This document shows, piece by piece, positions 41,420 to 62,897 of a stretch of 64,000 bases of DNA (positions are counted from its first letter, which is position 1; each line of letters opens with the position of its first letter). The notes below the pieces were generated by a model. The model ran no database searches and had not been told where the DNA came from. It was given only the letters and a program-made list of their open reading frames with translations. Source of the DNA: Bacteroidales bacterium. GTDB taxonomy: Bacteria > Bacteroidota > Bacteroidia > Bacteroidales > GCA-2748055. Where the stretch lies: positions 27,799 through 91,798 of the forward strand of contig JAOZQY010000002.1 of assembly GCA_029931975.1 (NCBI GenBank). Reading direction: 5' to 3'. Both the position numbers and the translations under genes were made by a program.

Positions 41420-41470
41420 GAATATATGCTGTTTTGATGATCTGGTATTTATAATCCTTATCTTAGTTTC

Positions 41471-42826: not shown

Positions 42827-42835
42827 TCGGCTTTG

Positions 42836-43762: not shown

Positions 43763-43781
43763 CTTTATCTGATCACTTGCC

Positions 43782-45827: not shown

Positions 45828-45857
45828 GCTTGTGATTAAATTACTAAATTTATCCAC

Positions 45858-46160
45858 ATGAGAGCAATCACAATTAAATCAGTGGAGATCCTCCAAGAGG
45901 AGGTGCAACTTGAAGTCCATTACAAATTTGGAATGGAGCAGTACACTGATTATGTTTTCAAACCGGGAGGGGGCAAAATGTATTCAGCCACCATTGTCAT
46001 GGATTCCAGTGAGCATGTGATAAGCAAAGTAACTGAAGCAAGCAGTTTCTTTCCCGGACACACATTTATTCTCGACGATCTCGATATGGAGTCCAATATA
46101 TCAACATCTTACCGCTTAAAGGAAGGGGAAATCCTGGAGAAGAAATTTAATATTGGCTAA
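45858..46160 (+). CDS. hypothetical protein
   Basis: 100-aa ORF, 30 nt downstream of the kinase gene. It has no recognisable motifs. Confidence 0.4.
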   Translation: MRAITIKSVEILQEEVQLEVHYKFGMEQYTDYVFKPGGGKMYSATIVMDSSEHVISKVTEASSFFPGHTFILDDLDMESNISTSYRLKEGEILEKKFNIG

Positions 46161-46182
46161 GGTCGCCCAACTCTTTAATTTA

Positions 46183-48603
46183 TTAGTTCTTTGATCTGAT
46201 ATTTACTTTTGAGGACCTGAGTCCTTCTGCACTTGCACTTACAACCAGGTCGCCCGGCTCACTTCCTGCCTGCAATATCAGAAGCTGTTTGCCTTTCCTG
46301 ATCTCTTTTGAACTTGAACCGTATGGGGTTTGATCTGCCAGGTCGCCGTTATCGATGACCCTGATTCTCCCGTTGCCCTCCAGCTGATAGTTAACCATAT
46401 GCTTACTGTGCGGGTTGAGTTCCCCGGCACTGTCCACTACACTTGTTGTAATGTGGACAATTCGCCTGCCGTTTTCCACCAATCGTTTGTCAGGATGCAT
46501 GGCGAGTGCATAGGGAGAGTATGAGGTGCGCAGAGTGTCTGATATCTTCTGTTGTTTTCCCCTGTCGTCATCATAGTATGCATGGGCCACCAGTACACCT
46601 TTCTCATAGGGAACAGGGGCCTTTATTACTCCATCCGGAAATGACGCTCTCTTCAGGCTATGAATCAGCCGGCTGTTCAGTATGATATCTACTTGCCTGC
46701 AATTGGTAAAAACCACAACTTCCTTGCTTGTTGGATCGTCCTGGAAACTCCAGTGTTCCACCAGAGGAGGACCAACCCAACTGGTTTGCCAGCTGCTCAG
46801 TTGATTCAGCGAGTCTGCAAAAAGCGAGTCCTTTACTGTAAGTTTTACCATGGGATCGTCCCGGTACTGAGAAGCAATATACCAGGCATGGGGTTTGATA
46901 AATCCATTGGTTTCCATCAATCCATTTCTTAAACCACGATCTGGCCAGCCTGCCGATTCACCAAGATAGTCGATCCCGGCCCAGATAAACTGACCGGCCA
47001 CAAACTCATCCATGTCGTTCCAGGAGTTGTCGGAATAATCGATTACCTGGTAATCCTCTTTTCTCTGTGTGCCATATGCTTTGGTTTCGGTGGCTATAAA
47101 AACAAGCTCAGGGTGGAGTTTATGCCAGATCCTGAATGAATCGCTGCGGTAGTTGTAGGAAACTACAGGGGAAACATGCATGAGGCTCGAAGGGACTTCA
47201 AATTCGGGATTTGAAGAGCCGGGATGAAGGGCAGCGGTGACCATTCTGCTTGAATCGATCGACAGAACAAAATCCTTCATTTTACTATACCAGGCAACTC
47301 CATCGCCAGGATTGTAGAGTTGCTCCATGGTTTCATTCCCCAGACTCCAGAGGACAACCGAGGCATGATTTCTGTCGCGACGTATAAAATTAGACAGGTC
47401 ACTCTCCCAGGTTTCTTCCAGGCTCAGGTCCTCAGCGGCACCTGGCCAGGGCTGCTCCCACTTATCATACATTTCGTCGATAACCAGGAATCCCATTCTG
47501 TCGGCCAGGTCCAGTACCTCGGGGGCGTGTGGATTGTGGGCCAGCCTCAGGGCATTGACACCCAGTTCTTTCAATAGATGAAATCTTCTTTTCCAGCTTT
47601 CCAGCGGAACGGCGGCCCCAAGTTCTCCTCCATCGTGATGAAGACAAACCCCTTTCATGATAAGTTTCTCTCCGTTCAGAACAAACCCCTGGTCTGGATT
47701 GAATTCCACACTTCGAATACCATGTTCAATGGTGAGCTGATCGAGCGACTTATTCTTATCCGTCAGGTAACAGTGGACTTTGTAAAGATTGGGAGAATCG
47801 GGCGACCAAAAGCTTGGGTTCTCTATAATGAAGTTTCTTTTGGGGCGGATAAGGCCTCCCGATTCAATAAGACCTGTGCTGTTACCGTTGGCCACCAGTT
47901 TTCCACCTGGATCCACCACATCGTACCGCACTTCAAATCGTCGGCCCTTCCGGCCATTATTTTGTACTTCCAGGGAGATGTCCAGGCTGGCTTTACCCGT
48001 ACTGTCGATGCTCGATGTTACAGCCTCGCCCCAGATGGACATATGTAAGGCGCTGGTAGTGATTAGTCTCACGTGCCTGTATATTCCTCCACCCGAATAC
48101 CAGCGATCTGTCGGCAACTTGCTGCAATCAGTTCTGACGGCAATTACATTAAGAGTGTCGGTCCGGACCAACGCGGAAATATCATGATAGAAACTGGAGT
48201 ATCCATAAACTTGTTTGCCCAGGTGTTTGCCGTTGAAGTAGACATCGGCATTCCTCATAACGCCTTCAAAGAGCAGGTAAAACTGTTCTTTGTTTTCATA
48301 TTCAGAGAGGTCCAGGCTATGACGGTACCATCCAATACCTCCCGGGTAAAAGCCTCCAGCCGTTCCGGATTGATTATCTCTTTGTGCCCTTTGCTCAATC
48401 ATCCAGTCGTGGGGTAGTGAAAGATACTTCCACTCGGAATCATTAAAATCAGGGCGGAATGCGCCGGAAGGATCGCCCATGGTGAATCGCCAGTTCAGAT
48501 CAATGGTGGTGTTGACCCTGGGCTGGCTCTCCCTGGTTCGGTAAATGAACCAGGTTGCCAGGACAACCACTGTGCATAGTATGATCCAGTGGAATATTTT
48601 CAT
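46183..48603 (-). CDS. glycoside hydrolase family 2 protein, secreted/anchored
   Basis: 806-aa ORF with an N-terminal hydrophobic anchor, a sugar-binding N-domain, the acid/base motif WSLGNET and a TIM-barrel core. Confidence 0.9.
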   Translation of the reverse strand: MKIFHWIILCTVVVLATWFIYRTRESQPRVNTTIDLNWRFTMGDPSGAFRPDFNDSEWKYLSLPHDWMIEQRAQRDNQSGTAGGFYPGGIGWYRHSLDLSEYENKEQFYLLFEGVMRNADVYFNGKHLGKQVYGYSSFYHDISALVRTDTLNVIAVRTDCSKLPTDRWYSGGGIYRHVRLITTSALHMSIWGEAVTSSIDSTGKASLDISLEVQNNGRKGRRFEVRYDVVDPGGKLVANGNSTGLIESGGLIRPKRNFIIENPSFWSPDSPNLYKVHCYLTDKNKSLDQLTIEHGIRSVEFNPDQGFVLNGEKLIMKGVCLHHDGGELGAAVPLESWKRRFHLLKELGVNALRLAHNPHAPEVLDLADRMGFLVIDEMYDKWEQPWPGAAEDLSLEETWESDLSNFIRRDRNHASVVLWSLGNETMEQLYNPGDGVAWYSKMKDFVLSIDSSRMVTAALHPGSSNPEFEVPSSLMHVSPVVSYNYRSDSFRIWHKLHPELVFIATETKAYGTQRKEDYQVIDYSDNSWNDMDEFVAGQFIWAGIDYLGESAGWPDRGLRNGLMETNGFIKPHAWYIASQYRDDPMVKLTVKDSLFADSLNQLSSWQTSWVGPPLVEHWSFQDDPTSKEVVVFTNCRQVDIILNSRLIHSLKRASFPDGVIKAPVPYEKGVLVAHAYYDDDRGKQQKISDTLRTSYSPYALAMHPDKRLVENGRRIVHITTSVVDSAGELNPHSKHMVNYQLEGNGRIRVIDNGDLADQTPYGSSSKEIRKGKQLLILQAGSEPGDLVVSASAEGLRSSKVNIRSKN

Positions 48604-49265
48604 TTGTGGCTATTTGACTGAATCAGTTGCTCAAATCGGTTAATAAACTTGTGTATTGTATCGAAATGTCCTGCCTTCAATCTTCGGTTTACAGCAGGCT
48701 GTGAAATTCCCAGAAGCTTACTGATTTCCATCTGGTTCTTCCCGGTCAGGTTCAAAAACATTGCCTCTGCCTGTTCATCTGACCAGTCATGAATAAGTAT
48801 ATCCATAAAACTACAGGTCAGAGTGAACTCATCGTTCAGTTCCTTAAAGGACGATATGATGGAAATTCGCTGGTTTCGTTTCATTTCCCCGATACCTTCT
48901 GAAGCTTTCCGGAAGGCTGTTCCGTCCGATTCCCTCAAATGTTCCTGACCAAACTCCACGGGCCCGATTGCTTCACATACTCTGAGTTCTAAACGCTCCG
49001 TAAGCTCTTTGTAGGACAGGAAGCGGAAGGCACTGAAAAGCATTATGAGCGATCGCATGGAGTGCCCGGGAGAAGCAGAAAGTGCAAGAAACTCATCCAT
49101 CCTGATGATCTCGTACTTGAGCCTGGCTTCTTCAGGGACCAGTCGGTTCACAGCCTGGAATGAGGCCCTGATAATGTCAGGAATCTTACTGAACTGTTCA
49201 TCCGAGATCCTTGCACCAGGGGCAAGTTCTCCTGCAATAACAGCATAATGTGCCTTATTTATCAT
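48600..49265 (-). CDS. SatD-like protein with C-terminal sigma-70 region-4-type HTH
   Basis: 221-aa ORF. Its layout matches my recollection of the SatD family (YAVIAGE...; MDEFLAL; DGTAFRKASEGI; C-terminal EISKLLGISQPAVNRRLK). The stop overlaps the GH2 start by 4 nt (ATGA). Confidence 0.5.
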   Translation of the reverse strand: MINKAHYAVIAGELAPGARISDEQFSKIPDIIRASFQAVNRLVPEEARLKYEIIRMDEFLALSASPGHSMRSLIMLFSAFRFLSYKELTERLELRVCEAIGPVEFGQEHLRESDGTAFRKASEGIGEMKRNQRISIISSFKELNDEFTLTCSFMDILIHDWSDEQAEAMFLNLTGKNQMEISKLLGISQPAVNRRLKAGHFDTIHKFINRFEQLIQSNSHK

Positions 49266-49530: not shown

Positions 49531-49568
49531 ACCAGACATGAAGAATGATATACCTAAACGCGAAGAGG

Positions 49569-50774
49569 ATGAAACAAATATTTGGCCTTATACTTATATC
49601 TGTACTGCTTTGCGATGGAACGGCTCAGGACCCTACCAGTTGGAGAGGCCCCACCCGGGATGGAATCTACCCGGAAACAGGCTTGTTGAAGCAGTGGCCG
49701 GCCGGTGGCCCGCAGATGCTCTGGGCCTATGAAGATCTTGGACAGGGACACTCCTCTGCCATTGTCGATCAGGGCTTTGTATATACAACAGGTATGATCA
49801 ATGATATGGGTTATCTTTTTAAATTCGATTTGGAAGGAAAGCTGGTATACAAAAAGGAATATGGTCCTGAATTCACTGAAAGTTTCTATGGTACCAGGGG
49901 AACACCTACCATTGTGGGTGATAAGATTTACCTCTTGAGCGGCACCGGGAAATTGCATTGTATCTATAATGAGTCGGGCGATATACTCTGGACCAAGGAT
50001 CTGTTTAAGGATTTTGATGGCAAGATTATCCGATGGGGAATGAATGAAACTCCTGTGATCGATGGAGATATTATCTACATTACCCCGGGTGGTAAAAAGT
50101 TTAATATTGTTGCACTGAACCGTCATTCGGGCGATCTGATCTGGAGTTCCCCGGGGATGGGAGAACTGACAGCTTATTCGACCCCCCTGTTGTTTGTACA
50201 TAATGGCAGGAAGATGCTGGCTACCCATTTTGAATCGCACCTGGTGGGTTTTGATGCCACCACAGGTGAAATGCTCTGGAACCAGCACCAGCCCAACGAG
50301 TGGTCCGTTCATCCCAATACACCCATCTATCACCAGGGAGGATTATTCTATCTGAGTGGATACGGACAGGGTGGAGGCATGCTGGAAATTGCGCCTGATG
50401 GCAACTCGGTCAACATAAAATGGACCCATAAGCTTATGGATAGTCGTATGGGCGGTGCCGTTCTGGTGGATGGATACATCTATGGATCCGGCGATAGCCG
50501 GGTGTGGACCTGTTTTGACTGGGAAACCGGAGAAGAGATGTACACTTCTAAGGAAATTGGTTTTGGCGTTTTGATTGCTGCGGATGGAATGCTCTACTGT
50601 TACAGTCAAAAGGGCGAGTTGGCCCTGGTAAAGCCTGATCCTTCAGCGTTTACCGTGATCAGCAAAACCAAGGTGGCTCTTGGATCAGAGCAGCACTGGG
50701 CACATCCGGTCATTTATGACGGTGTCCTCTATGTCAGACATGGCAAAGCGCTGATCGCTTATAAAGTAAAGTAG
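49569..50774 (+). CDS. secreted PQQ-like (BamB-like) beta-propeller repeat protein
   Basis: Signal peptide MKQIFGLILISVLLCDGTAQ, the N-terminal motif WRGPTRDGIYPETGLLKQWPAGGPQMLW, and repeated propeller-blade patterns to the end (WAHPVIYDGVLYVRHGKALIAYKV). An alternative start is at 49545. Confidence 0.8.
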   Translation: MKQIFGLILISVLLCDGTAQDPTSWRGPTRDGIYPETGLLKQWPAGGPQMLWAYEDLGQGHSSAIVDQGFVYTTGMINDMGYLFKFDLEGKLVYKKEYGPEFTESFYGTRGTPTIVGDKIYLLSGTGKLHCIYNESGDILWTKDLFKDFDGKIIRWGMNETPVIDGDIIYITPGGKKFNIVALNRHSGDLIWSSPGMGELTAYSTPLLFVHNGRKMLATHFESHLVGFDATTGEMLWNQHQPNEWSVHPNTPIYHQGGLFYLSGYGQGGGMLEIAPDGNSVNIKWTHKLMDSRMGGAVLVDGYIYGSGDSRVWTCFDWETGEEMYTSKEIGFGVLIAADGMLYCYSQKGELALVKPDPSAFTVISKTKVALGSEQHWAHPVIYDGVLYVRHGKALIAYKVK

Positions 50775-50813
50775 CGTCTCCACCCGGCGGTTTGTATTCA
50801 AAAACTTTAATTG

Positions 50814-51439
50814 ATGAAACATAGCTGTTTATCATTGCTTTTTATGATCCTGCTGACAGGAACAGGCCTGCAGGCTCAGGACGGACAATGGCGTGGACCG
50901 CAGAGGGATGGTAAATATCCTGATACAGGATTGCTGAAAAGCTGGCCCGAAGGGGGACCGGAACTTCTTTTGAGAAAAGATGGGCTGGGCAATGGATATT
51001 CTTCGCCCCTGGTTGTGGATGAGAAGATCTATATTATGGGCGGACTGGGAACGGTTGTCTGCATGGATACCGGTTCGGGAGAGATTCTCTGGCAGAGGAA
51101 TACCCACCAGGAATTTGAGGGTGAATTTCATCGCTGGGGCATGACAGAATCCCTGTTACTGACCGATAATGCAGTGATATCCACTCCAATCGATCACAAT
51201 GGATCAAAGTTAATTCTGATCACCTCCAGCGAGAACCTGATGGGTGTGGATCCTGAGTGCGGGGAGGTATACTGGAAGGTAGATCTCCTGAAGTATCTTG
51301 GCGAAAGAGGTCATCGGATCAATACCAATACACCCTGGAAAGCAGGTCGGGACCCTACTGGGCCCATATGACCATTTATAAAAAGAAATTATTTGTGAGG
51401 CATGGGGAAGTTCTTTACATCTTCGAAATAGGGGAATAG
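50814..51439 (+). pseudogene. decayed paralogue of the preceding beta-propeller gene
   Basis: It has the same signal and N-motif (WRGPQRDGKYPDTGLLKSWPEGGPELLL). The body is about half length with blades missing. The conserved C-terminus (WAHMTIYKKKLFVRHGEVLYIFEI) is in a different frame (ORF 51257-51439). Confidence 0.6.
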
Positions 51440-51483
51440 GGAAATAGTTAATAGTTAGTGGCTTGAGATTGAACAGGATAAAT

Positions 51484-52890
51484 ATGGTGACCATATTGCT
51501 GGTACTGGCGGGAGTGATCTCCCTGGGCTGGTGGCTGGCCACGGACCCGGTGAGTGATTTTGTCACTACCCAGCCCGGCCTTGACAATCGTGGTGAAGGC
51601 GGAGTGGTGGCCGATATCGATATCGGGGCCGTTGGAGAGACCCTGGCCAGCCTGGAGACGGAACTTACAGAAACCTGGCCCAGGTTTCGGGGCGAGCATT
51701 TCGATAACATCAGCTCTTCCACGATTCCCCTGATAGATAAGTTTCCTGAAGAGGGACCTGATATAAAGTGGTCGGTGTCCCTGGGTGAAGGACATGCCGG
51801 TGCCGCGATCTACAAGGGAGTGGTTTACGTATTGGATTATGACGAGGAGCAGCGGGCCGATCTCTTAAGGGCTTATGCCCTGGAGAGCGGTGAGAAGCTG
51901 TGGGTGCGTGGCTATAAGATCAACCTGAAGCGGAACCACGGCATGTCGCGCACAGTACCGGCGGTCACCGAAGAGCATATCCTGACCATTGGTCCCCGCA
52001 GTCACGTGATGTGTGTGAATCGTACCGACGGGACCTTTAACTGGGGATTGAATGTGGAGAAGGAGTACGGGTCAGAAATACCACTCTGGTATACCGGTCA
52101 GTGCCCCTTGATTCATGATGGCAAAGCGATTATTGCTGCCTGTGGCACTGCCCTGATGGTGGCCCTGGATATGGAAACCGGAGAGGTGCTCTGGGAAACT
52201 CCCAATCCACATGCCTGGCTCATGTCGCACTCCTCGGTGATGCCCTTTAAGTTTGGGGGAAGGATGATGTATGTGTACAGTGCCTATGGGGGTGTTTGCG
52301 GGGTGGCAGCAGATGGTCCCGATGCAGGAGCAATCCTCTGGGAAAGCACAGCCTGGAACCACCAGGTGATTGCCCCATCGCCGGTCTGTATGCCCGATGG
52401 TAAGATTTACCTTACTGCCGGCTATGGGGCCGGAGCCATGGTGCTACAGTTATCCGCTTCCGGTGGAAGTTACAGTGTTGAGGTACTGAATGAGTATACA
52501 CCTAAAGAGGGACTTGCCTGTGAACAGCAGACGCCGGTGGAGTTTAAGGGACACCTGCTGGGAATTCTTCCCAAGGATGCGGGTCCACTCCGTAACCAGC
52601 TGGTTTGCGTTCATCCCGATAATTTTAACCAGGTAGTGTGGTCTAGCGGACAGGACAAGCGTTTTGGACTGGGGCCCTATATGATTGCCGATAATAAACT
52701 CTTTATTCTTAGTGATGATGCTACACTCACCATTGCCCGGCCGGGTATCAGGGAGTACATTGAACTGGATAGTTACAGGGTGCTGGAGGGACACGATGCA
52801 TGGGGACCTCTGGCCATTGCAGACGGGTACTTGGTGATGCGCGATTCCAAAACAATGGTCTGTCTCGATATAGCTGCAGACCGAAAGTAA
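51484..52890 (+). CDS. membrane-anchored PQQ-like beta-propeller repeat protein
   Basis: N-terminal TM helix (VTILLVLAGVISLGWWLA), then WPRFRGEHFDN... and propeller repeats. The track ORF starts at TTG 51463; the first in-frame ATG is at 51484. Confidence 0.8.
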   Translation: MVTILLVLAGVISLGWWLATDPVSDFVTTQPGLDNRGEGGVVADIDIGAVGETLASLETELTETWPRFRGEHFDNISSSTIPLIDKFPEEGPDIKWSVSLGEGHAGAAIYKGVVYVLDYDEEQRADLLRAYALESGEKLWVRGYKINLKRNHGMSRTVPAVTEEHILTIGPRSHVMCVNRTDGTFNWGLNVEKEYGSEIPLWYTGQCPLIHDGKAIIAACGTALMVALDMETGEVLWETPNPHAWLMSHSSVMPFKFGGRMMYVYSAYGGVCGVAADGPDAGAILWESTAWNHQVIAPSPVCMPDGKIYLTAGYGAGAMVLQLSASGGSYSVEVLNEYTPKEGLACEQQTPVEFKGHLLGILPKDAGPLRNQLVCVHPDNFNQVVWSSGQDKRFGLGPYMIADNKLFILSDDATLTIARPGIREYIELDSYRVLEGHDAWGPLAIADGYLVMRDSKTMVCLDIAADRK

Positions 52891-52909: not shown

Positions 52910-53884
52910 ATGAAAAAGCGAAGTTTGACAATCGTGGTGCTGGTGATCATAGTGATTATCCTGGGAGTTATTATTGTGGATTTTTTGGGTAACCGTCCCG
53001 ATCGCAGGGGGGAGAATCCCTATGTGTTGGAGGTGAAGCAATACAGGGAAGTGGACCCTGAACTGATATCCCACAGAGAGATCCGGAATTTTTCTCTGGG
53101 ATTGATGATTGCAAGCGATATGAGTTATTACAATCAGACTCTCTATATTTCGGGGAATTCAACACTGGCAGTAATCTCCCTGAATGGATCACAATCCACC
53201 CTGCACGAGATTCCACCCGGCGCCACCAGCCTGGAGGTGGATGATGAAAATATTTTTGTGGGTTTTGGCAGCCATGTGGCCAAATATAATCATGAAGGAG
53301 AGCTTTTGCAGCAGTGGGCTGATCTGGGGGAGCGTACCGTGATTACCAACCTGGCCATAAAAGGAGATAAGATTTTCGTAGCAGATGCAGGTAACAGGCG
53401 CATTGTGATCTTCAACAGGGAAGGTGAATTGTTGGGCCAGTTTGAAGGGAAGGTCGAATCGGATGATGCACATGGATTTATTGTACCCAGTGCTAATTTC
53501 GATCTGGCAGTAAACTGTTTTGGCGAGTTATGGGTGGTCAATCCGGGCAAACATGCCCTGGAAAACTATAGCGACGATGGCCGTTTGCGTGGTTTCTGGG
53601 AGAGACGTTCCTTCGAAATAGACGGTTTCCTGGGCTGTTGCAACCCGGCCAGGATCACCACCATGGCCGATGGATCCTTTGTAACGTGTGAGAAGGGGAT
53701 GGTACGGATCAAGATTTACGATCAGTCGGGAAAACTTAAGAGCGTGGTGGCTCCTCCCGATCTTTTCAATGGAGAAGAAGGGAAGGCTCTGGAAGTATGC
53801 GCCGATGAGAACGATGTGATCTATGCATTGGATTTTGAGAAAGATATGATCAGGGTTTTTGAACCCATAGCAAAGGAACAATGA
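52910..53884 (+). CDS. membrane-anchored NHL-repeat beta-propeller protein
   Basis: N-terminal TM helix (LTIVVLVIIVIILGVIIV) and NHL repeats (e.g. FVADAGNRRIVIFNREGELLGQF; VRIKIYDQSGKL). An unusual CCNP motif is present (GFLGCCNPARI). Confidence 0.8.
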   Translation: MKKRSLTIVVLVIIVIILGVIIVDFLGNRPDRRGENPYVLEVKQYREVDPELISHREIRNFSLGLMIASDMSYYNQTLYISGNSTLAVISLNGSQSTLHEIPPGATSLEVDDENIFVGFGSHVAKYNHEGELLQQWADLGERTVITNLAIKGDKIFVADAGNRRIVIFNREGELLGQFEGKVESDDAHGFIVPSANFDLAVNCFGELWVVNPGKHALENYSDDGRLRGFWERRSFEIDGFLGCCNPARITTMADGSFVTCEKGMVRIKIYDQSGKLKSVVAPPDLFNGEEGKALEVCADENDVIYALDFEKDMIRVFEPIAKEQ

Positions 53885-54078
53885 ACAGGCGGAATTTTAT
53901 AGATAAAACAGGCCGGGGATTTCTTCTCGGGGCGATCGCACTGCTTAGCGGGGTGCTGGTAGTACGTCGGCAAGTGGTTCAGGATGCTTCCTGTACAGCT
54001 AACTTCCAGTGTAAGAACTGCGGGAAACTGTCTGATTGTCAGCTTTCTGAGGCTGAAACAGAACGAACAGATGGATAA
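53881..54078 (+). CDS. 65-aa Tat-motif / hydrophobic-anchor microprotein with a Cx5Cx2Cx5C cluster
   Basis: MNRRNFIDKTGRGFLLGAIALLSGVLVV...SCTANFQCKNCGKLSDC. The start overlaps the NHL gene stop (ATGA) and the end overlaps the next start by 8 nt, which supports translation. Confidence 0.5.
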   Translation: MNRRNFIDKTGRGFLLGAIALLSGVLVVRRQVVQDASCTANFQCKNCGKLSDCQLSEAETERTDG

Positions 54079-54661
54079 ACAGAATAAGAGCAAGGATAAG
54101 GGTGTCAAAAGAAGAGACTTCATCAATACGGGTGTAAGACTTGCCCTTGGTGTGTCTGTGGTGGGGACCGCTGCTTTCACCCTGAAGCGCTCATCCACGG
54201 GAAAGGATTATGTCTGGCAGATCGATCCATTCAAATGTACACAGTGCGGACGTTGTGCTACCGAGTGTGTTAAGGCAGAATCGGCAGTAAAATGTGTACA
54301 TGCCTATGCCCTGTGTGGTTACTGCGATCTTTGCGGTGGCTATTTCAAGCCGGGGGCCAAGCTGGAGACCGGTGCGGAGAATCAGCTCTGTCCGACCGGT
54401 GCTATCCAGCGAAAATTTATTGAGGAACCCTATTTTGAATATGTCATCGACGAGGCGCTCTGTATTGGTTGTGCTAAATGCGTAAAGGGATGTTCAGCCT
54501 TTGGAAACGGTTCCCTGCACCTTCAGATCAGGCATGATCTCTGTCTTAACTGCAACCAGTGCTCCATCGCCTCGGTTTGTCCCTCCGATGCCATCAGTCG
54601 TGTTCCGGCCGATGAACCCTATAAAATTAAAGGTGATTTCATCATTGAGAAGGAAGTTTGA
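54071..54661 (+). CDS. Tat-exported poly-[4Fe-4S] ferredoxin (NapG/NosG/MauM-like)
   Basis: Tat motif KRRDFINTGVRLALGVSVVG. Four Cys-cluster motifs are present: CTQCGRCATEC, CGYCDLCGG...LCPTGAI, CIGCAKCVKGC and CLNCNQCSIASVCP. Confidence 0.8.
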   Translation: MDKQNKSKDKGVKRRDFINTGVRLALGVSVVGTAAFTLKRSSTGKDYVWQIDPFKCTQCGRCATECVKAESAVKCVHAYALCGYCDLCGGYFKPGAKLETGAENQLCPTGAIQRKFIEEPYFEYVIDEALCIGCAKCVKGCSAFGNGSLHLQIRHDLCLNCNQCSIASVCPSDAISRVPADEPYKIKGDFIIEKEV

Positions 54662-54662
54662 T

Positions 54663-55952
54663 ATGATAAAATGGATACCCCGCATTGTACTGATTCTAAT
54701 CCTGTTGACATTGCTTACCGGTAGTTTCCTGCATGCACAGCAACGTTTCCCTAAGCCTGAGTTTGATACCGGTTATGTGCAGCCCGATCCCAGCACGCCC
54801 GAACCCAGAGCCATGGCCATGGAGTATTTTGATGTGTTGGTTCTGCTGGTAGTGCTTTCCCTGGCGTCCTGGCTGGCCATTAAAAAGCGTTCGCGCCGTG
54901 GTCTGCTCTGGCTCTCTGTTTTCTCGCTGATCTATTTTGGGTTCTATCGCGATGGCTGCATCTGCTCCGTCGGAGCCATTCAGAATGTGGCACTCTCCAT
55001 TTTCGATCCGGGATATGCCATCTCCATAACAGCCCTGCTCTTTTTTGTCCTTCCGCTACTCTTTGCACTCTTTTTCGGGCGCGTCTTTTGTGCTTCGGCA
55101 TGTCCCCTTGGAGCCATCCAGGATCTGCTGGTGATTCACCCCATCTCCATACCCAGCTGGATTCGAAAAACCCTGGGTTTTATTCCGCTTATTTACCTTG
55201 CGCTTTCGGTACTCTTTGCTGCCACGGGCAGTGACTTTATCATCTGTCGCTACGATCCCTTTATAGGGATCTTCCGGATGGACGGTCCCTTCCTGATGAT
55301 TTTCCTGGGTATGACCTTTCTCTTCCTGGGCATGTTTTATGCCAGGCCCTACTGCCGGATCTTCTGTCCCTACGGTGTTCTGCTGGGATGGATGTCAAAA
55401 TTTTCGAAATGGCACATGAGCATCACCCCCTCGGAGTGCATCAAGTGCAAACTGTGCGAGGACTCCTGTCCATTCGACGCCATTGAGGTGCCCATTGAAC
55501 AGAGTTACAGGGACCCGGAGGTCTCCCGAAAGAACCTGAGGAGATTTATTTTCTATATCGCTATGATTCCCCTGCTTACGCTGGCAGGTGGATGGACAGG
55601 GGCAAAATCGAATGTTTTTTTGAGCCGTGTTCATCCCGATGTCTACCTGGCCGAGCTGATGATCAGTAATCCCGAGTTAAGAGAAGATGAGGAGAACCTG
55701 GATATTCAGGCCTTCCTGGAAGCGGGGCTTACCTTTGAGCAGTTGATTGAGAAGGCCGCTGTGATACGCGAGAAATTCAGGAAAGGGGGCATGGCTATGG
55801 GTGGATTCATCGGTCTGGCACTGGGTATCACCCTGATGAACCAAGTGGTGTTCCGGCGCAGGGAAGATTACAAGCCCCATAAGGGAGATTGTTTCTCCTG
55901 TGGAAGGTGTATGGACTATTGTCCTGTGGGAAAAATAGTGAATAGTGCCTAG
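54663..55952 (+). CDS. integral-membrane polyferredoxin (NapH/NosH/MauN-like)
   Basis: Multiple TM helices, two CX3CP motifs (FCASACPLGAIQD; YCRIFCPYGVLL), and two ferredoxin motifs (CIKCKLCEDSCP; CFSCGRCMDYCP). The start is 1 nt after the preceding stop. Confidence 0.8.
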   Translation: MIKWIPRIVLILILLTLLTGSFLHAQQRFPKPEFDTGYVQPDPSTPEPRAMAMEYFDVLVLLVVLSLASWLAIKKRSRRGLLWLSVFSLIYFGFYRDGCICSVGAIQNVALSIFDPGYAISITALLFFVLPLLFALFFGRVFCASACPLGAIQDLLVIHPISIPSWIRKTLGFIPLIYLALSVLFAATGSDFIICRYDPFIGIFRMDGPFLMIFLGMTFLFLGMFYARPYCRIFCPYGVLLGWMSKFSKWHMSITPSECIKCKLCEDSCPFDAIEVPIEQSYRDPEVSRKNLRRFIFYIAMIPLLTLAGGWTGAKSNVFLSRVHPDVYLAELMISNPELREDEENLDIQAFLEAGLTFEQLIEKAAVIREKFRKGGMAMGGFIGLALGITLMNQVVFRRREDYKPHKGDCFSCGRCMDYCPVGKIVNSA

Positions 55953-57825
55953 GGTAAAAGTTGATGGAAAAGAAATGAAAATAACAGGTAATATGGATCA
56001 GGATCAGAAAATTGTACTGACCCGCAGGGTTGTACTGATCTCCGGAACATTCAGCGCAGTGGTGGCCCTGCTGCTGATACTGAATTTCTGGCACATGAAA
56101 CACAATGAGCCGCTGGAGAGTAAAACCATCGAGGCACTGGTGGAACGACTGGCCAGCGAGCCGGACAATGAGGAGCTAAAAGAGGAAATCCGCAGCTTTG
56201 ACCTGCTGGCACGCAAGGCCTATTTTACGAGCCAATGGCAGGTGAAGAGCGGTACCTGGCTACTGCTTATTGGTGGTATCGTGCTGGCTGTTTCCCTGAA
56301 AATCTATACCGATTTAAGGAGCCGGATTGAGGAACCCGAAAAGGTGACTGAAGACTTGCTGAGGGCAAGGGCCAATTCACAGTACTGGTTGATGATGGCA
56401 GGAGGATTGATCCTCGGATTGTCACTGGTGGCGGGTTTCCTGACCAACGATTACCTGGAGGCTTACCAGGAGATGGGTGTGGCGACTGAGTCCGAACAGC
56501 AGGAGGGTGATGTGGAAATGATCGAATTGTTCACCGGGCAACCGGATACAACAGGTGATGCAGGTCTTGAGGTGAGTGAAACGAAAAACAGTGAAGTTGT
56601 CAGTGAGACAGGTACAGGCCAAGCTCCTGTCGAAGAGTCGCTTGCTACTGCGACAGAGATTCGTTTTAATCGCGAAGATTTTAAAAAGAACCAGGCTACC
56701 TTCCGTGGTTACATGGGACAGGGTGTTTCCTATCATAAGAATATCCCGGAGAATTGGAACGGTTCCACCGGCGAGGGCATCAAATGGAAAGTAGCTTCTT
56801 CCAGGCCGGGATACAGCTCACCGGTGATCTGGGGAGATAAGCTTTTTATCTCGGGCGGAGATACGCAGGCCAGGGTGGTGGCATGCTACAACAGGCATAA
56901 CGGACAACTACTCTGGGAGAAGGAGGTATCCGGGATACAGGGATCTCCGGCAGCGCCGCCCCGGGTCACCGACGATACGGGACTGGCGGCTCCAACCATG
57001 TCGGTTGATGGTAACAGGGTATATGCCATATTTGCCACTGGCGACGTGGTGGCCTTTGATATGAATGGCAAACAGGTGTGGGGTCGCAATCTTGGAGTTC
57101 CCAATAACCATTATGGGCACTCATCATCGCTCCAGGTCTGGGACAACAAGGTGATTGTTCAGTACGATACCAATTCGTCGGGAAGAATGCTGGCCCTTAA
57201 TACATCAACGGGTGAGACCATCTGGGATGTGGAGCGACCGGTGCACATTTCATGGGCATCTCCGGTTCTGATCGATGTGGAAGGAAAGATCCAGGTGGTT
57301 ACCACGGCAGATCCCTATGTATCGGGACATGATCTGGAAACTGGTGCTGAAATCTGGAAGGTGGAGGCCATGATGGGTGAAGTTGGTGCCTCTGTTGCCT
57401 ATGGGAACGGACTGGTATTTGCCACCAACGAGTATGCCCGGCTGGTAGCTATGGAGCCTAAAGCGGGTGCGGAGTTTACCTGGGAGGACGATGAGTACCT
57501 TGCCGAGGCATCCAGTCCGGTTGCATACAATGGCCTGCTCTATACAGCCACCAGTTACGGGGTGCTGGTCTGTTACGATGCTCTTACAGGAGAGAAGAAA
57601 TTTGAAAAAGAATTTAACAATGGCTTCTATTCTTCACCCATGATAGCAGATGGAAAGCTCTATATCGTCGATATGCGCGGTGTGACTCATATCCTGAAGG
57701 CCGATGCCAGCGGAACCATTATTGCCGAGCCGGAGATGGGTGAAGGGGGGTATGCCGTACCTGCTTTTGCAGATGGATTAATTTACCTGAGGGGGGAATC
57801 GAACTTGTATTGTATTGGGAAATAG
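55945..57825 (+). CDS. three-TM-anchored PQQ-like beta-propeller repeat protein with acidic linker
   Basis: About three N-terminal TM helices and an acidic Glu/Thr-rich linker. Then FRGYMGQGVSYHKNIPENW...IKWKV and propeller repeats to the end. The GTG start at 55945 overlaps the upstream gene by 8 nt; an alternative ATG is at 55975. Confidence 0.8.
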   Translation: MPRVKVDGKEMKITGNMDQDQKIVLTRRVVLISGTFSAVVALLLILNFWHMKHNEPLESKTIEALVERLASEPDNEELKEEIRSFDLLARKAYFTSQWQVKSGTWLLLIGGIVLAVSLKIYTDLRSRIEEPEKVTEDLLRARANSQYWLMMAGGLILGLSLVAGFLTNDYLEAYQEMGVATESEQQEGDVEMIELFTGQPDTTGDAGLEVSETKNSEVVSETGTGQAPVEESLATATEIRFNREDFKKNQATFRGYMGQGVSYHKNIPENWNGSTGEGIKWKVASSRPGYSSPVIWGDKLFISGGDTQARVVACYNRHNGQLLWEKEVSGIQGSPAAPPRVTDDTGLAAPTMSVDGNRVYAIFATGDVVAFDMNGKQVWGRNLGVPNNHYGHSSSLQVWDNKVIVQYDTNSSGRMLALNTSTGETIWDVERPVHISWASPVLIDVEGKIQVVTTADPYVSGHDLETGAEIWKVEAMMGEVGASVAYGNGLVFATNEYARLVAMEPKAGAEFTWEDDEYLAEASSPVAYNGLLYTATSYGVLVCYDALTGEKKFEKEFNNGFYSSPMIADGKLYIVDMRGVTHILKADASGTIIAEPEMGEGGYAVPAFADGLIYLRGESNLYCIGK

Positions 57826-60167
57826 TGGAAGTTGAGATAAAAGATATAAATGCGATAGTGCAGGAGCTGGGAGTAGCACAGCATGCTGTGATTCCAGTAC
57901 TGCAGGCCATCCAGGAGAAGTACAACTATCTGCCTGAGGAGGCGTTGCGCAGGGTATGTGAGATTTCCGAAATCACACCGGCTCAGATTGTGGGTGTGGC
58001 CAGCTTCTACTCGCAATTCAGGTTTACACCGGCCGGTCAGCATATAATAAAGGTGTGTGTGGGAACCGCCTGTCATGTTAAAGGAGCCGGACTGGTATAT
58101 GACGCCATGAAACGGGAACTGGAACTGGGTGAGGGTAAGGATACCACTGCTTCGGGGAAGTATACCATTGAGAAGGTTAACTGCCTGGGATGTTGCACCC
58201 TGGCACCGGTGGTTCAGATCGACCATGTTACCTACGGACATGTAAACACCTCCCAGGTGGCCAAAGTTCTGACCGATTTTGAGACTCTGAAGGGCGACTC
58301 GGGAAAGAAAAAATACAGATTGGCTGATGGCAGTGAGGTGAAAGGTGAGATACGGATCGGACTGGGCTCCTGTTGTGTGGCAAGTGGAAGTGATGAGATC
58401 AGGGATGCGGTAAAGGATACCATCGACCGGAAGGGACTAAATGTAAAACTGAAGCATGTGGGCTGTGTGGGCATGTGTCATCAGGTTCCACTGGTGGAGA
58501 TTGTTCCGGCCAACGGGGAGTCCACCCTTTATTCAAAGGTAAAGGCGGCCGATGTGGATCAGATCGTACAAGAGCACTTTCAACCCGAAGGGTTCCTGAA
58601 AAGAATCTCCCATAAACTGCTGAATATGGCCGATACTATCAGGGACGATAGTCGCTGGATGGGAGTGGACCGCTATTCTCTGGATGTGCGGGAGAAACAT
58701 GTATCCCTCTTCCTGGATAAGCAGATTCCCATGGCCACCGAGTTTCGTGGAATCATCAATCCCATCGATGTGGAGGAGTATAAGAGTCGGAATGGATTTA
58801 AAGGACTCTCCCGGGTACTGAAAGAGATGAAACCTGCCGAGGTGGTCGGGGAGATTATCGATAGTGGCATACGTGGCCGCGGTGGTGGTGGCTTTCCTTC
58901 CGGAATCAAATGGAAGATGGTGGCCCGGCAGCCTGGTCCCACAAAATACGTAATCTGTAATGGCGATGAGGGCGACCCGGGTGCCTTTATGGACCGGATG
59001 CTTCTTGAGTCTTACCCCTACCGGATTATTGAAGGGATGGTTGCAGCAGGCTATGCCATTGGTGCCTCTGAAGGCATCCTGTATATCAGGGCAGAATATC
59101 CCCTGGCGGTGACACGTGTATTGCAGGCACTGGATATCTGCAGGGAGCAGGGTTATCTTGGAAAAAATATTATGGGTAGCGGTTTTGACTTCGATCTAAG
59201 TGTTTACCAGGGTGCAGGAGCCTTTGTCTGTGGGGAGGAGACCGCATTGATGGAATCCATTGAGGGGAAACGTGGTTTCCCCAGGATCAGGCCACCCTAT
59301 CCTGCAGTGAAAGGCCTGTGGGGAGCTCCCACACTGATAAACAATACAGAGACCTTTGCCCAGATTTCCTATATAATGAAGAACGGTGCCTCCGCCTTTA
59401 ACAGGGTAGGAACCAAGTTGTCGCGGGGAACCAAGGTTTTTGCACTGGCCGGAAAGGTGGCCCGTGGCGGACTCATCGAGGTGCCCATGGGAATGACCAT
59501 TCGCGAGGTGGTGGAAGAGATCGGAGGCGGTGTGGCCAATGGCCGGAAATTTAAAGCGGTACAGATCGGCGGACCTTCCGGAGGTTGTGTGCCGTCGTGG
59601 AAGTCAGATACACCTATTGATTTTGAATCGCTTAAGGAGGTTGGAGCCATGATGGGCAGCGGGGGACTGGTGGTGCTGGATGATACGGACTGCATGGTGG
59701 ATATTGCCCGCTACTTTCTCACCTTCACCCAGAACGAATCCTGTGGCAAATGCAGCTTCGGACGCATTGGCACCAAGCGGATGCTGGAGATCCTGGAAAA
59801 GCTTACCACCGGGAAAGGGACCGAAAAAGATCTGGAGAACCTGGAGGAGCTGGCGCATTGGACCAAGAAGGGAAGCCTGTGTGCCTTATGCGGAACGGCA
59901 CCCAATCCCATTCTCTCCACCCTGGAATATTTCAGGGACGAGTATGAGGCCCATATCAGGGGGGAGTGTCCGGCCGGAAAGTGCAAGCACCTGATCAAGT
60001 ATGAAATTACGGATGATTGTATCGGCTGCACCCTTTGCGCTCAGGACTGCCCGGTGGATGCTATCGCCTTCAAACCTCATGAGAAGCATGAGGTGGACAA
60101 TGAATTGTGTATTCAATGTGATGGTTGCAGGCAGGTATGTCCCGAAAATGCGGTAATAGTTAGATAG
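57825..60167 (+). CDS. fused NuoE-like [2Fe-2S] / second thioredoxin-like [2Fe-2S] / NuoF-like FMN-NADH flavoprotein / 2x[4Fe-4S] ferredoxin (HydB/HndC-type)
   Basis: NuoE Cys pattern (CVGTAC...CLGCC) and a second 2Fe-2S domain (GSCCVASG...GCVGMCHQ). NuoF motifs are GIRGRGGGGFPSGIKW, CNGDEGDPGAFMDR, GAGAFVCGEETAL and ESCGKC. The C-terminus carries CIGCTLCAQDCP and CIQCDGCRQVCP. GTG 57825 overlaps the upstream TAG; the track gives TTG 57810. Confidence 0.9.
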   Translation: MEVEIKDINAIVQELGVAQHAVIPVLQAIQEKYNYLPEEALRRVCEISEITPAQIVGVASFYSQFRFTPAGQHIIKVCVGTACHVKGAGLVYDAMKRELELGEGKDTTASGKYTIEKVNCLGCCTLAPVVQIDHVTYGHVNTSQVAKVLTDFETLKGDSGKKKYRLADGSEVKGEIRIGLGSCCVASGSDEIRDAVKDTIDRKGLNVKLKHVGCVGMCHQVPLVEIVPANGESTLYSKVKAADVDQIVQEHFQPEGFLKRISHKLLNMADTIRDDSRWMGVDRYSLDVREKHVSLFLDKQIPMATEFRGIINPIDVEEYKSRNGFKGLSRVLKEMKPAEVVGEIIDSGIRGRGGGGFPSGIKWKMVARQPGPTKYVICNGDEGDPGAFMDRMLLESYPYRIIEGMVAAGYAIGASEGILYIRAEYPLAVTRVLQALDICREQGYLGKNIMGSGFDFDLSVYQGAGAFVCGEETALMESIEGKRGFPRIRPPYPAVKGLWGAPTLINNTETFAQISYIMKNGASAFNRVGTKLSRGTKVFALAGKVARGGLIEVPMGMTIREVVEEIGGGVANGRKFKAVQIGGPSGGCVPSWKSDTPIDFESLKEVGAMMGSGGLVVLDDTDCMVDIARYFLTFTQNESCGKCSFGRIGTKRMLEILEKLTTGKGTEKDLENLEELAHWTKKGSLCALCGTAPNPILSTLEYFRDEYEAHIRGECPAGKCKHLIKYEITDDCIGCTLCAQDCPVDAIAFKPHEKHEVDNELCIQCDGCRQVCPENAVIVR

Positions 60168-60174: not shown

Positions 60175-61740
60175 GTGGTTAAAATAAAGATCGATAACAG
60201 GGAAATAGTGGCAGCCGAAGGCAGCGTGCTGATGGAGGTGATCAGGGACATGGGCATCGAGGTGCCTTCCATGTGTTACCTGAAGGAAGTCGAAAGTTTC
60301 ACCTCCTGCATGCTATGTGTAGTGAAGGATCGAAAGAGCGGGAAAATCCTGCCTTCCTGTTCGCTTGAGGCAGTGGAGGGCATGGATATTATCTCCATGG
60401 ACGACGAGGTGAGGGAGGCACGAAAAAGTGCCCTTGAACTGCTGCTGAGCGAACATGTGGGCGATTGCGAGGCCCCCTGCCAGCTTACCTGTCCGGCCCA
60501 TATGGATATTCCCCTGATGAACCGTCTGCTGGCTGAAGGAAAGTTCCATGAGGCTCTGGTGGTGGTGAAAAAAGATATTGCTCTTCCATCGGTTCTTGGC
60601 AGAATTTGTCCGGCCCCCTGCGAGGGAGCCTGTCGGCGAAAGTCCATCGATCAGGCGGTCTCCATCTGTCTGCTAAAACGCTTTGCAGGGGATCATGACC
60701 TGGAGGCTGATATGTCATGGATGCCCATTCCGGCAAGCAGTAGTGGAAAGAAGGTAAGTGTGATTGGTGCTGGACCGGCCGGACTGGCTGCAGCGTACCA
60801 GCTGGAACTGATGGGGCATCACTGCCTTGTCATCGACCGTAATAAAATTGCGGGTGGCAGCCTTAGAAAAGAGGTCTCCCCGGAGGAACTTCCTCCGGTG
60901 GTTCTAAAGCGGGAAATTGAGCATATTGCAGCACTTGGTGTGGAATTCAGGCTTGGATCGGAGGTGGATGCCAAACAGTTCCTGGAACTTCAGAAGAGCA
61001 GCGATGCCATTGTGGTGGCCACAGGAAAAGGAGAAAGCGGAGTTGGAGCCTGGGGATTGCCCATGCATCCCAAGGGTGTGGAAGTCCATGGGAAGACATA
61101 CCGGGTGGGCGACACAGCCGTTTTTGTGGTGGGTAGCGCCCTGAAACCGTCCAAACTGGCCATCCGGGCATTGGGACAGGGCAAGGAAGCTGCATTCAGT
61201 GTGGATCAGTTTCTGAAAGGGCAAGCGGTTACAGGGGAACCCAGGCTTTTTAATTCCCGGTTTGGCAAACTGGATCGGGCCGAGTATGCTGAATATCTAA
61301 AAGAATCGAAGGAAGGGGAACGCCTGGAACCGGCACAAAAAGGTGAGGGCCTGACTGCGGAACAGGTAATGGAGGAGGCTGCACGATGCCTGCATTGCGA
61401 TTGCCGCGATTTGAAAAACTGCAGGCTCAGGCTCTATTCAGATGCCTATGGTGCCGATCAGAAGCGATTCAAATCTGAAGTTCGTCAGCTCTGCACCAAA
61501 CAGGTGCAACACAAGGAGGTGATTTACGAGCCTTCCAAGTGTATCAAGTGCGGGATCTGTGTCAGGCTCACCGAAAAATATAAAGAGGATTTTGGTTTCA
61601 CCTTTATTGGCAGGGGCTTTGATGTGGTAGTTGGAGTGCCTTTTAATGAGAGCACGGCCGAGGGTCTTAAGAAAGTGGCCCTGGAGGTAGCCGATGCATG
61701 TCCCACCGGTGCCATCAGTCGAAAAATTGAAAGCTTGTAA
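60175..61740 (+). CDS. NuoG/HydA-type [2Fe-2S] domain fused to a GltD-like Fe-S/FAD domain and C-terminal NuoG-like [4Fe-4S] motifs
   Basis: The N-terminus KIKIDNREIVAAEGSVLMEV...PSMCY...CMLCVV is Fer2-like. A GltD N-domain follows (CEAPCQLTCPAHMDIP...GRICPAPCEGACRR), then an FAD GxGxxG (VIGAGPAGLAAAYQL). The C-terminus carries CLHCDCRDLKNC and CIKCGICV...CPTGAI. It uses a GTG start. Confidence 0.8.
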   Translation: MVKIKIDNREIVAAEGSVLMEVIRDMGIEVPSMCYLKEVESFTSCMLCVVKDRKSGKILPSCSLEAVEGMDIISMDDEVREARKSALELLLSEHVGDCEAPCQLTCPAHMDIPLMNRLLAEGKFHEALVVVKKDIALPSVLGRICPAPCEGACRRKSIDQAVSICLLKRFAGDHDLEADMSWMPIPASSSGKKVSVIGAGPAGLAAAYQLELMGHHCLVIDRNKIAGGSLRKEVSPEELPPVVLKREIEHIAALGVEFRLGSEVDAKQFLELQKSSDAIVVATGKGESGVGAWGLPMHPKGVEVHGKTYRVGDTAVFVVGSALKPSKLAIRALGQGKEAAFSVDQFLKGQAVTGEPRLFNSRFGKLDRAEYAEYLKESKEGERLEPAQKGEGLTAEQVMEEAARCLHCDCRDLKNCRLRLYSDAYGADQKRFKSEVRQLCTKQVQHKEVIYEPSKCIKCGICVRLTEKYKEDFGFTFIGRGFDVVVGVPFNESTAEGLKKVALEVADACPTGAISRKIESL

Positions 61741-62876: not shown

Positions 62877-62897
62877 AAAGGATATGGAATGAATATA

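Follow-up and report, generated by a model that had tools for sequence, protein, structure and literature searches.

Membrane proteins with a NapH-like core have been proposed to act as modular transmembrane electron carriers (PMC8238504), and the cores of this kind in NosR, NirI, RdhC and PceC have been proposed to donate electrons to a periplasmic reductase (PMC8238504, PMC5928378). There is a precedent for a cytoplasmic iron-sulfur (Fe-S) protein, NapF, docking on NapH, and no function has ever been assigned to the CX3CP motifs of the NapH-, NosR- and RdhC-type proteins (PMC5928378). The Bfu family of electron-bifurcating enzymes, on the other side of the comparison made here, accepts many third-substrate modules, and its BfuB clades 1 to 17 have no assigned function (PMC9304861). 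We have analysed a stretch of 64,000 nucleotides (nt) from a Bacteroidales bacterium (contig JAOZQY010000002.1, positions 27,799 to 91,798; hereafter the window), which encodes, side by side, an exported ferredoxin, G, and a NapH-like membrane protein, H. Both genes sit inside a tightly packed plus-strand operon together with a Bfu-type module and several beta-propeller proteins. With moderate confidence, we propose that G and H provide the core through which one complex, containing no centres other than Fe-S and flavin, would cross the membrane and reach from the cytoplasmic Bfu-type module to the periplasmic proteins. This proposal draws on gene content, conservation, domain losses, natural gene fusions and predicted topology.

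The core genes of the operon are as follows (coordinates in the window; aa, amino acids; TM, transmembrane segment; Tat, twin-arginine translocation):

51463-52890, plus strand: propeller of the 8-blade type, 475 aa, with one N-terminal TM (residues 8-26); found in every locus.
52910-53884, plus strand: membrane-anchored NHL-repeat propeller, 324 aa (Pfam NHL).
53881-54078, plus strand: small gene S, 65 aa, uncalled; a conserved open reading frame (ORF) in 67 related loci.
54071-54661, plus strand: G, periplasmic ferredoxin with a Tat signal and four 4Fe-4S motifs, 196 aa (motifs, conservation).
54663-55952, plus strand: H, NapH-like polytopic Fe-S membrane protein, 429 aa (Pfam Fer4_5, motifs).
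55945-57825, plus strand: TM-propeller, a three-TM anchor with a periplasmic 8-bladed BamB-like propeller, 626 aa.
57810-60167, plus strand: cytoplasmic NuoE-NuoF fusion of the BfuC+BfuB type, 785 aa (Pfam, NCBIfam and PDB alignments).
60175-61740, plus strand: truncated BfuA/NfnA-like (GltD/NfnA-like) Fe-S subunit, 521 aa (partial alignment to 9bov_A).

From the NHL gene to the last propeller gene the intergenic spacing ranges from -16 to +19 nt, with several overlaps of 4-16 nt. The start of S overlaps the NHL stop codon (ATGA) and its end overlaps the start of G, and the TM-propeller gene overlaps that of H by 8 nt and the NuoE-NuoF gene by 16 nt; from an alternative start (ATG 55975) the TM-propeller would be 616 aa long. 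An earlier reading of the window from its sequence alone had placed the ORFs of G and H at 54071-55952, with a Tat signal in the former and cysteine motifs in both, and all of this was recovered, on the plus strand. The inventory in that sequence-only reading was right for these two genes and missed S, the NuoE-NuoF fusion and the truncated NfnA-like subunit. It had also called the pair an orphan, which holds in so far as a nap, nos or mau partner is absent, but the operon does contain a Bfu-type module two genes further on.

The gene order propeller, NHL protein, S, G, H, TM-propeller, NuoE-NuoF and NfnA-like subunit recurs in some 50 loci of Bacteroidota and Chlorobiota, essentially all of those long enough to judge. 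A genome scan yielded 80 loci, all from Bacteroidota-type genomes except for one Chlorobiota metagenome-assembled genome (MAG), and the cluster is carried, among others, by the cultured strains Mariniphaga sediminis SY21 and Maribellus maritimus 5E3 and by one MAG from the Saprospiraceae (Bacteroidota). Contigs of Planctomycetota, and other metagenomic contigs, keep the core, namely the anchored propeller, the NHL protein, S, G, H, the TM-propeller, NuoE-NuoF and the NfnA-like subunit. In the Planctomycetota locus L085, sequence identities to the window proteins are 57% for G, 38% for the 475-aa propeller (E 3e-114) and 32% for the NHL protein, and S is likewise present yet uncalled. Some lineages carry insertions within the cluster: in Prolixibacteraceae, an SGNH/GxDLY esterase gene lies between the NuoE-NuoF and NfnA-like genes (L044 15599-16702; L048 15996-17120), and Maribellus has a His_kinase and LytTR response regulator pair inside the cluster (L048 2285-4072).

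The most direct links between these proteins come from natural gene fusions. A beta-propeller had been suggested as the partner of the pair, and this idea gains support from Planctomycetota, where H and a membrane-anchored propeller occur in one polypeptide. Fusions of H with the TM-propeller make up at least ten of the top 150 representative clusters, with some 1000 aa each (P0246 and P0398 among them); P0246 aligns to the window protein over its full length with 33% identity (E 1e-106), and Pfam Fer4_5 and PQQ_2 are found together in eight of the ten H-propeller fusions tested. S, G and H are joined in a single chain of 638 aa in P0426, and P0412 is a chain of G and H. On the cytoplasmic side, P0440 fuses NuoE to an H core with an unsplit two-cluster domain and is followed by NuoF and GltD-like genes. 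It is this natural H-NuoE fusion, along with the adjacent Bfu module in the operon, that makes the NADH/ferredoxin module the best-supported electron partner of H, over the quinol pool alone. Such an arrangement is seen in a Phycisphaerae MAG (L087 2625-8176), which encodes H-NuoE, NuoF and a GltD-like protein of 643 aa, with no Tat ferredoxin or propellers nearby; this variant may represent a membrane-anchored Nfn-like enzyme or one of the NADH:quinone type.

At the N-terminus of G, a twin-arginine motif (KRRDF) precedes a hydrophobic stretch. R14, R15, F17 and each of the 17 cysteines are conserved in 93% or more of 57 orthologues, and 16 of these cysteines form four 4Fe-4S motifs (C56/59/62/66, C82/85/88/107, C131/134/137/141 and C158/161/164/170), with C75 as the extra one. 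The product of S has a Tat-like N-terminus (MNRRNFI, with RR or RK across loci), then one TM and a cysteine motif, C38-x5-C44-x2-C47-x5-C53-x-LPEA, the four cysteines of which are invariant in the 67 related loci.

H has the two CX3CP motifs (C143/C147 and C231/C235) and the two CxxCxxCxxxCP motifs (C259-269 and C410-420) that had been claimed for it, and all of these cysteines are invariant in 79 orthologues, a pattern far beyond chance. The NapH-type domain Fer4_5 (PF12801) is detected in two stretches with 50.8 bits against a cutoff of 22. Relatives of H are numerous, with more than 100 protein clusters at identities of at least 66% and 408 clusters (50% identity level) at E <= 1e-30. An alternative start of H, a TTG codon, lies six codons upstream of 54663. 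The sequence-only reading had noted an extra C-terminal segment consisting of additional TM helices and a final CFSCGRCMDYCP. The insertion of TM helices is indeed there; the final CFSCGRCMDYCP is not an additional cluster, and aligns to NapH residues 259-270, where the canonical two-cluster ferredoxin domain has its second half. Alignment and hydropathy indicate that this domain is split in H by two TM helices and a conserved periplasmic loop of approximately 65 aa, and in the Phycisphaerae relative the two 4Fe-4S motifs are adjacent and unsplit.

In comparison with NapH and YccM, the alignment shows three further features specific to H, a signal peptide, a conserved periplasmic N-terminal segment (QQRFPKPEF...PEPR) and an extra TM. 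Specific to H are also the cysteines C99-x-C101 and C195, in loops predicted to be periplasmic from homology to NapH and the positive-inside rule. The predicted topology comprises the signal peptide, the periplasmic N-terminal segment and about seven TM. It was derived from hydropathy, alignment and the natural fusions, not from the AlphaFold2 model. As to the side of the membrane on which the Fe-S motifs lie, a point raised by the sequence-only reading, the positive-inside pattern and the alignment with NapH predict the CX3CP motifs and the ferredoxin domain to be cytoplasmic. The fusions are consistent with this arrangement. Judged from the chain that joins H to NuoE, the ferredoxin domain and the C-terminus of H are predicted to face the cytoplasm, like NuoE itself; in the H-propeller fusions, the C-terminus of H joins the cytoplasmic N-terminus of the propeller anchor; and G, the cysteine motif of S and the N-terminal segment of H would, from their fusions, share the non-cytoplasmic side. 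PDB sequence searches with H returned generic ferredoxin matches only.

The sequence-only reading regarded G and H as a NapG/NapH-type pair, and this assignment did not withstand scoring. Family placement was based on all-against-all scores and curated hidden Markov model (HMM) cutoffs, standing in for a phylogeny; the reference sequences were napGH of Escherichia coli, napGH of Sulfuricurvum (beside napA), mauMN of Paracoccus (beside mauBEDA) and E. coli yccM, with the NapH/MauN references spanning three proteobacterial classes, and the comparison with NosR was made by NCBIfam and Pfam models only. The H family scores 26-48 bits against NapH of E. coli, NapH of Sulfuricurvum and MauN of Paracoccus, which score 183-234 bits with one another. 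Against the NapH/MauN models, H reaches 42.5 bits with TIGR02163 (cutoff 213.05) and 39.3 bits with NF007013 (cutoff 234), and against the NosR model NF046105 it reaches 30 bits (cutoff 1000), with no FMN_bind domain found in it by Pfam. For G, scores with NapG and MauM are 20-28 bits, compared with 167-223 bits among these proteins themselves, and no NapG model is among its NCBIfam matches at E <= 0.001. What G shares with NapG and MauM is the Tat signal and the four 4Fe-4S motifs; what H shares with NapH and MauN is the two CX3CP motifs and two C-terminal 4Fe-4S motifs, the second of them displaced, and the topology of NapH and MauN (four TM, cytoplasmic N-terminus) differs from that predicted for H. 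A tblastn search of 72,556 plasmids with H gave three weak unnamed matches and no annotated NapH, whereas E. coli NapH as query retrieves about 30. Database names of H homologues vary between 'NosR/NirI family regulator', 'polyferredoxin' and '4Fe-4S binding protein'.

No nap, nos or mau catalytic gene is encoded in the 64-kb window. The possibility that one lies just outside had been named as a point that would tell against an unusual pair; none was found in some 50 syntenic loci or their 10-kb flanks, nor in the Planctomycetota versions, whereas the genuine NapGH and MauMN reference loci do show nap or mau catalytic neighbours.

The partner that is conserved, the cytoplasmic module, is of the Bfu type. 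The 785-aa NuoE-NuoF fusion carries every BfuB and BfuC domain in one chain: the thioredoxin-like 2Fe-2S domain of BfuC and, from BfuB, the N-terminal 2Fe-2S domain, the flavin mononucleotide (FMN)/NADH site, the 4Fe-4S domain and a C-terminal 2x[4Fe-4S] ferredoxin-docking domain. It aligns over its full length to NfnB (9n5u_B, E 2e-207), StnABC (8oh5), HydB and NiFe-BfuB (E range 2e-207 to 3e-188). The ligands of the B2 site are present (C628, H715, C720 and C725, corresponding to C438, H525, C531 and C536 of 7t2r_B), including the histidine reported to divide bifurcating from non-bifurcating homologues (PMC9304861), and a Thr occupies the position of C476 of 7t2r_B, as in most BfuB. The flavin-proximal 4Fe-4S cluster B1 (N3), part of the proposed B1-FMN-C1 bifurcation site (PMC9304861), has C645, C648, G651 and C691 in the window protein. 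Its third ligand (residue 651, codon at approximately 59760) is Gly in 18 and Cys in 32 of 50 orthologues, and co-varies with Ser/Thr at residue 649.

The 521-aa NfnA-like subunit contains a 2Fe-2S cluster, the GltD-type cluster pair, a remnant of a flavin adenine dinucleotide (FAD)-type Rossmann domain and further clusters. Its alignment to 9bov_A is confined to residues 3-291 and 426-671, with about 134 residues of the NADPH subdomain gone; a single GxGxxG is left, and the 'GD' of the FAD site reads G-S or G-N in all orthologues. There is no formate-dehydrogenase-like domain, and the solved proteins are 963-1178 aa long. In NfnABC, NADPH is oxidised at the NfnL-like flavin domain, to which the region deleted here belongs (PMC11829005). 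With the NADPH subdomain, the 'GD' and the formate-dehydrogenase-like domain lost, the subunit appears to keep its chain of clusters and to have no site left for a soluble third substrate, and the simplest reading is then that the cluster chain runs on into H. The missing NADPH site also argues against annotation as an Nfn transhydrogenase.

Less can be read from the periplasmic proteins. Several propellers are encoded, and all fall below the cutoffs of the pyrroloquinoline quinone (PQQ)-dehydrogenase and BamB models (TIGR03075, 18-78 bits vs 480; TIGR03300, 23-136 bits vs 285); only the generic PQQ_2 repeat model passes, and the fold is BamB-like. Residues kept at 93% or above number 23 of 409 in the 409-aa propeller and 124 in the TM-propeller. 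Only the propeller domain of the AlphaFold2 model of the TM-propeller was usable, with a predicted local distance difference test score (pLDDT) around 80, and a Foldseek search of this domain against the PDB placed BamB at the top and tetrathionate hydrolase next, which gives no clue to a cofactor. An N-H-Y-G-H motif in this protein was considered as a metal site and dropped, as the Planctomycetota fusions read N-I-Y-G-Y. For the 475-aa propeller, a PDB sequence search gave two marginal PQQ dehydrogenase matches only.

The NHL protein has a pair of vicinal cysteines, Cys243-Cys244 (G-C-C-N-P), and a histidine, His215, that are kept in 67 orthologues and also in Planctomycetota, where the motif is GFCGCCNPA; the solved relatives found by PDB sequence search are generic NHL domains only. 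Conserved metal or redox sites across the operons, which the sequence-only reading had recommended looking for in the propellers, were found in part: the NHL cysteine pair and His215 are kept, while the propeller His pair is lost in Planctomycetota. As the sole cross-phylum redox motif among the periplasmic proteins, Cys243-Cys244/His215 is a candidate terminal redox site. No c-type haem motif was found in any protein of the operon.

In the mechanism that we propose, the NuoE-NuoF fusion would oxidise NADH, and probably reduced ferredoxin too. The truncated NfnA-like subunit, its own substrate site lost, would serve only as a wire, from which electrons would pass into the cytoplasmic two-cluster domain of H. 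The membrane would be crossed via the CX3CP cysteines at the cytoplasmic face and then the CxC and single C cysteines at the periplasmic face, and electrons would arrive at the four clusters of G and the putative four-cysteine centre of S. From here they would be handed over to the NHL protein, with its vicinal cysteine pair, and the membrane-anchored propellers, which together would form a site in the periplasm. Physical assembly, the cofactors bound by cysteines outside the ferredoxin motifs, the export of electrons and the nature of their acceptor are inferences in this scheme. Outward flow is preferred since, by our reasoning, membrane potential aids the export of electrons and opposes their import, and since a donor on the outside could load the mid-potential site of Bfu against the membrane potential only if its own potential were very low. 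One candidate acceptor is an oxidant in the periplasm or outside the cell that would serve fermentation as an electron sink; another is a disulfide or sulfur compound. More tentatively, and as a possibility that we rate well below the core proposal, the operon may define a class of Bfu with an extracytoplasmic third substrate, in which NADH and reduced ferredoxin would be confurcated and the low-potential electrons exported by haem-free Fe-S proteins, the NfnA remnant, H, G and S, bypassing the quinone pool and further driven by membrane potential, for a reduction in the periplasm by the propellers and the NHL protein.

Several observations weigh against a direct route from Bfu through H to the periplasm. 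No recognisable catalytic cofactor site was seen in any periplasmic protein examined, and the His pair of the propeller varies across phyla. The Gly at the third ligand of B1 may impair or alter the Bfu core. One related contig, P0438, has no NuoE-NuoF gene beside the propeller. The AlphaFold2 model of H, built with 47 homologues, has a pLDDT of 59.5, too poor for a fold search or for placing the cysteines. Finally, there may be a role for quinone at H.

This last point leads to the main rival, which we find rather doubtful. It makes H a quinone-reactive hub: the module and H would form an NADH/ferredoxin:menaquinone oxidoreductase, or H and G would oxidise menaquinol for the propellers, with the cytoplasmic and periplasmic halves communicating via the quinone pool alone. 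H does share the four-helix core with two CX3CP motifs of NapH, for which the accepted model is that of a quinol dehydrogenase, but no NapH-like protein has a defined quinone site. A Bfu complex with quinone as the third substrate has been proposed (Nuo-Bfu, PMC9304861), and the Phycisphaerae variant, without G and propellers, implies that H there feeds a membrane component or only acts as an anchor. The S+G+H and H-propeller fusions and the periplasmic-side cysteines of H, however, argue for direct periplasmic transfer, and the confurcation of NADH and ferredoxin would be wasteful for menaquinone (-74 mV) in the absence of ion pumping, H being without a recognisable pump module.

Reversal of the route is unlikely in our view. 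The propellers or the NHL protein would then oxidise a low-potential periplasmic substrate, G and H would import the electrons, and Bfu would bifurcate them to NAD+ and ferredoxin in a redox loop. Bfu enzymes are reversible, and the hydrogenase, formate dehydrogenase and Nfn types run in the bifurcating direction (PMC9304861); NapH-like proteins beside PQQ alcohol dehydrogenases have been suggested to accept electrons from oxidases (PMC8238504), and the propellers are within the broad PQQ-like fold. None of them, however, reaches the PQQ-dehydrogenase cutoff, no signature of PQQ, haem, Mo or Cu was seen, no hydrogenase or formate dehydrogenase is linked, and import against the membrane potential would, by our reasoning, call for a donor well below about -500 mV. 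It is highly improbable that the pair is a displaced NapGH, NosGH or MauMN unit serving a nitrate, nitrous-oxide or methylamine enzyme elsewhere in the genome, as, despite the motif-level resemblance and the name 'NosR/NirI family regulator' given to some homologues, its scores are far under the family cutoffs and outside the NapH/MauN and NapG/MauM range, no nap, nos or mau catalytic gene was seen in the window or in about 60 related loci examined, and the conserved partners are different ones, some of them fused to H or G.

The core of the preferred Bfu-H-periplasm arrangement is flanked by more variable genes, which are, in the same coordinates:

48600-49265, minus strand (divergent): possible regulator, 221 aa, with a C-terminal helix-turn-helix-like stretch; associated with the operon by position.
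49545-50774, plus strand: BamB-like (PQQ_2) beta-propeller, secreted or lipoprotein-like, 409 aa, a variable accessory (Pfam PQQ_2, 70 bits).
50811-51371, plus strand: decayed remnant, 186 aa, of a 419-aa propeller paralogue (alignment to L002).
61743-62876, plus strand: secreted propeller, 377 aa, an accessory of the Bacteroidota/Chlorobiota form only (Pfam Beta-prop_ACSF4, 227 bits; PQQ_2, 160 bits).
62889-64000, plus strand: glycosyltransferase of the GT4 family, cut by the window end (frame open to the end; NCBIfam generic GT4).

The divergent 221-aa protein has counterparts of 55-83% identity at the same position in closer relatives only, and matched no Pfam family and nothing in PADLOC. 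The 409-aa propeller occurs, as one to three copies, in the majority of Bacteroidota loci, and the 377-aa propeller in nearly all of them, the latter being absent from the Planctomycetota clusters. Between the first and the 475-aa propellers, where the window has the 186-aa remnant, locus L002 has two intact 419-aa paralogues; three short blocks of the remnant align to the L002 gene at 5483-6742, with internal deletions.

The GT4 gene begins 12 nt past the gene of the 377-aa propeller, and in 45 of 48 loci its counterpart, with 59-88% identity, immediately follows the last propeller; it is probably co-operonic with the propeller cluster. Its product has an N-terminal CGNC motif. Identification as BshA of bacillithiol synthesis was rejected (35-60 bits vs a cutoff of 274). 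A GC-rich hairpin with a T-run and a terminator-like score at 62908-62923 was at one point taken for the end of the operon. Its position within the conserved GT4 ORF led us to withdraw this, and the operon probably does not end there. In L002, L054, L070 and L088, the next gene after GT4 encodes a LolD-like ABC ATPase, followed in L088 by a large FtsX-type permease.

Elsewhere in the window are genes for glycoside hydrolases, sensor kinases, transporters, peptidases, a CHAT protein and the like. The region 5' of the operon (38300-48603) contains two glycoside hydrolase family 2 (GH2) enzymes, a GH109-like oxidoreductase with a Tat signal, an EamA transporter and a 7TMR-DISM sensor kinase, and genes for a ROK kinase and a major facilitator superfamily transporter lie beyond it, at 35090-37185. 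This carbohydrate-use neighbourhood is not kept in related loci. Two further genes are unrelated to the operon: one for a CHAT-domain protein of 960 aa (24091-26973, minus strand) and, in Mariniphaga sediminis, one for a prokaryotic STING-domain protein 5' of the cluster (L044 2206-2856, minus strand). Rfam revealed no riboswitch or other RNA within the window or upstream of the operon, and PADLOC gave no match in the window.

In the literature searched, there is no description of a cluster combining a NapH-like protein, Bfu, a Tat ferredoxin and propellers, and the Bfu classification (PMC9304861), together with a term search of its supplement, links no Bfu type to a NapH-like protein. The operon offers a natural experiment on how proteins of the NapH, NosR and RdhC type obtain electrons and move them across the membrane, in which the conserved gene order, together with three independent fusions, indicates a defined donor module in the cytoplasm and defined partners in the periplasm. 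If the proposal is true, this would be the first cytoplasmic electron donor identified for a NapH/NosR-type membrane protein, and it would carry the Bfu family past soluble or quinone substrates. The cluster is widespread among anaerobic Bacteroidota and Planctomycetota of sediments, digesters and soils, and may matter for the disposal of electrons by fermenters; the cultured M. sediminis SY21 and M. maritimus 5E3 make the model testable. It is also a warning against annotating these genes by neighbourhood rules.

Set against known systems, G and H are most like NapG/NapH and MauM/MauN in the pairing of a four-cluster Tat ferredoxin with a polytopic protein that has two CX3CP motifs and a cytoplasmic two-cluster domain, and the core that H has in common with NapH aligns over 181 aa at 25% identity. 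H differs from NapH and MauN in its signal peptide, periplasmic N-terminal segment, extra TM, periplasmic-side CxC and C cysteines and two-TM insertion, and in place of NapA, NapB or MauB the partners here are the Bfu module and the propellers. NosR, NirI, RdhC and PceC have the same kind of membrane core with two CX3CP motifs, and NosR a cytoplasmic two-cluster domain as well, but they carry a periplasmic FMN-binding domain, whereas here there is no such domain and no ApbE gene, and the carrier is an Fe-S protein. The closest reference tested to H is E. coli YccM (48-74 bits), an uncharacterised NapH-like 4Fe-4S protein, which has neither the N-terminal extension nor the TM insertion and lacks the CxC and C cysteines, and whose gene adjoins torS.

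Rnf and Nqr are membrane complexes that join cytoplasmic NADH and ferredoxin to redox centres in and beyond the membrane, including an intramembrane Fe-S centre. Their subunits are unrelated to those described here, and neither flavin subunits of the RnfD, RnfG or NqrB type nor signs of ion translocation are seen in the operon. With the Bfu family (HydABC, NfnABC/StnABC; 9n5u, 8oh5, 7q4v, 7t2r) the operon shares all BfuB and BfuC domains and the His and Cys ligands of the B2 site, and the homology of its 521-aa subunit to NfnA covers the 2Fe-2S part at the N-terminus and the NfnL-like part. Unlike the A subunit of the Nfn-type enzymes, this one lacks the NADPH-binding subdomain of the NfnL-like flavin domain, the FAD 'GD' motif and the formate-dehydrogenase-like domain, and the locus as a whole stands apart from the described Bfu enzymes in that BfuC and BfuB are fused, the A subunit is truncated and a NapH-like membrane protein is linked to them.

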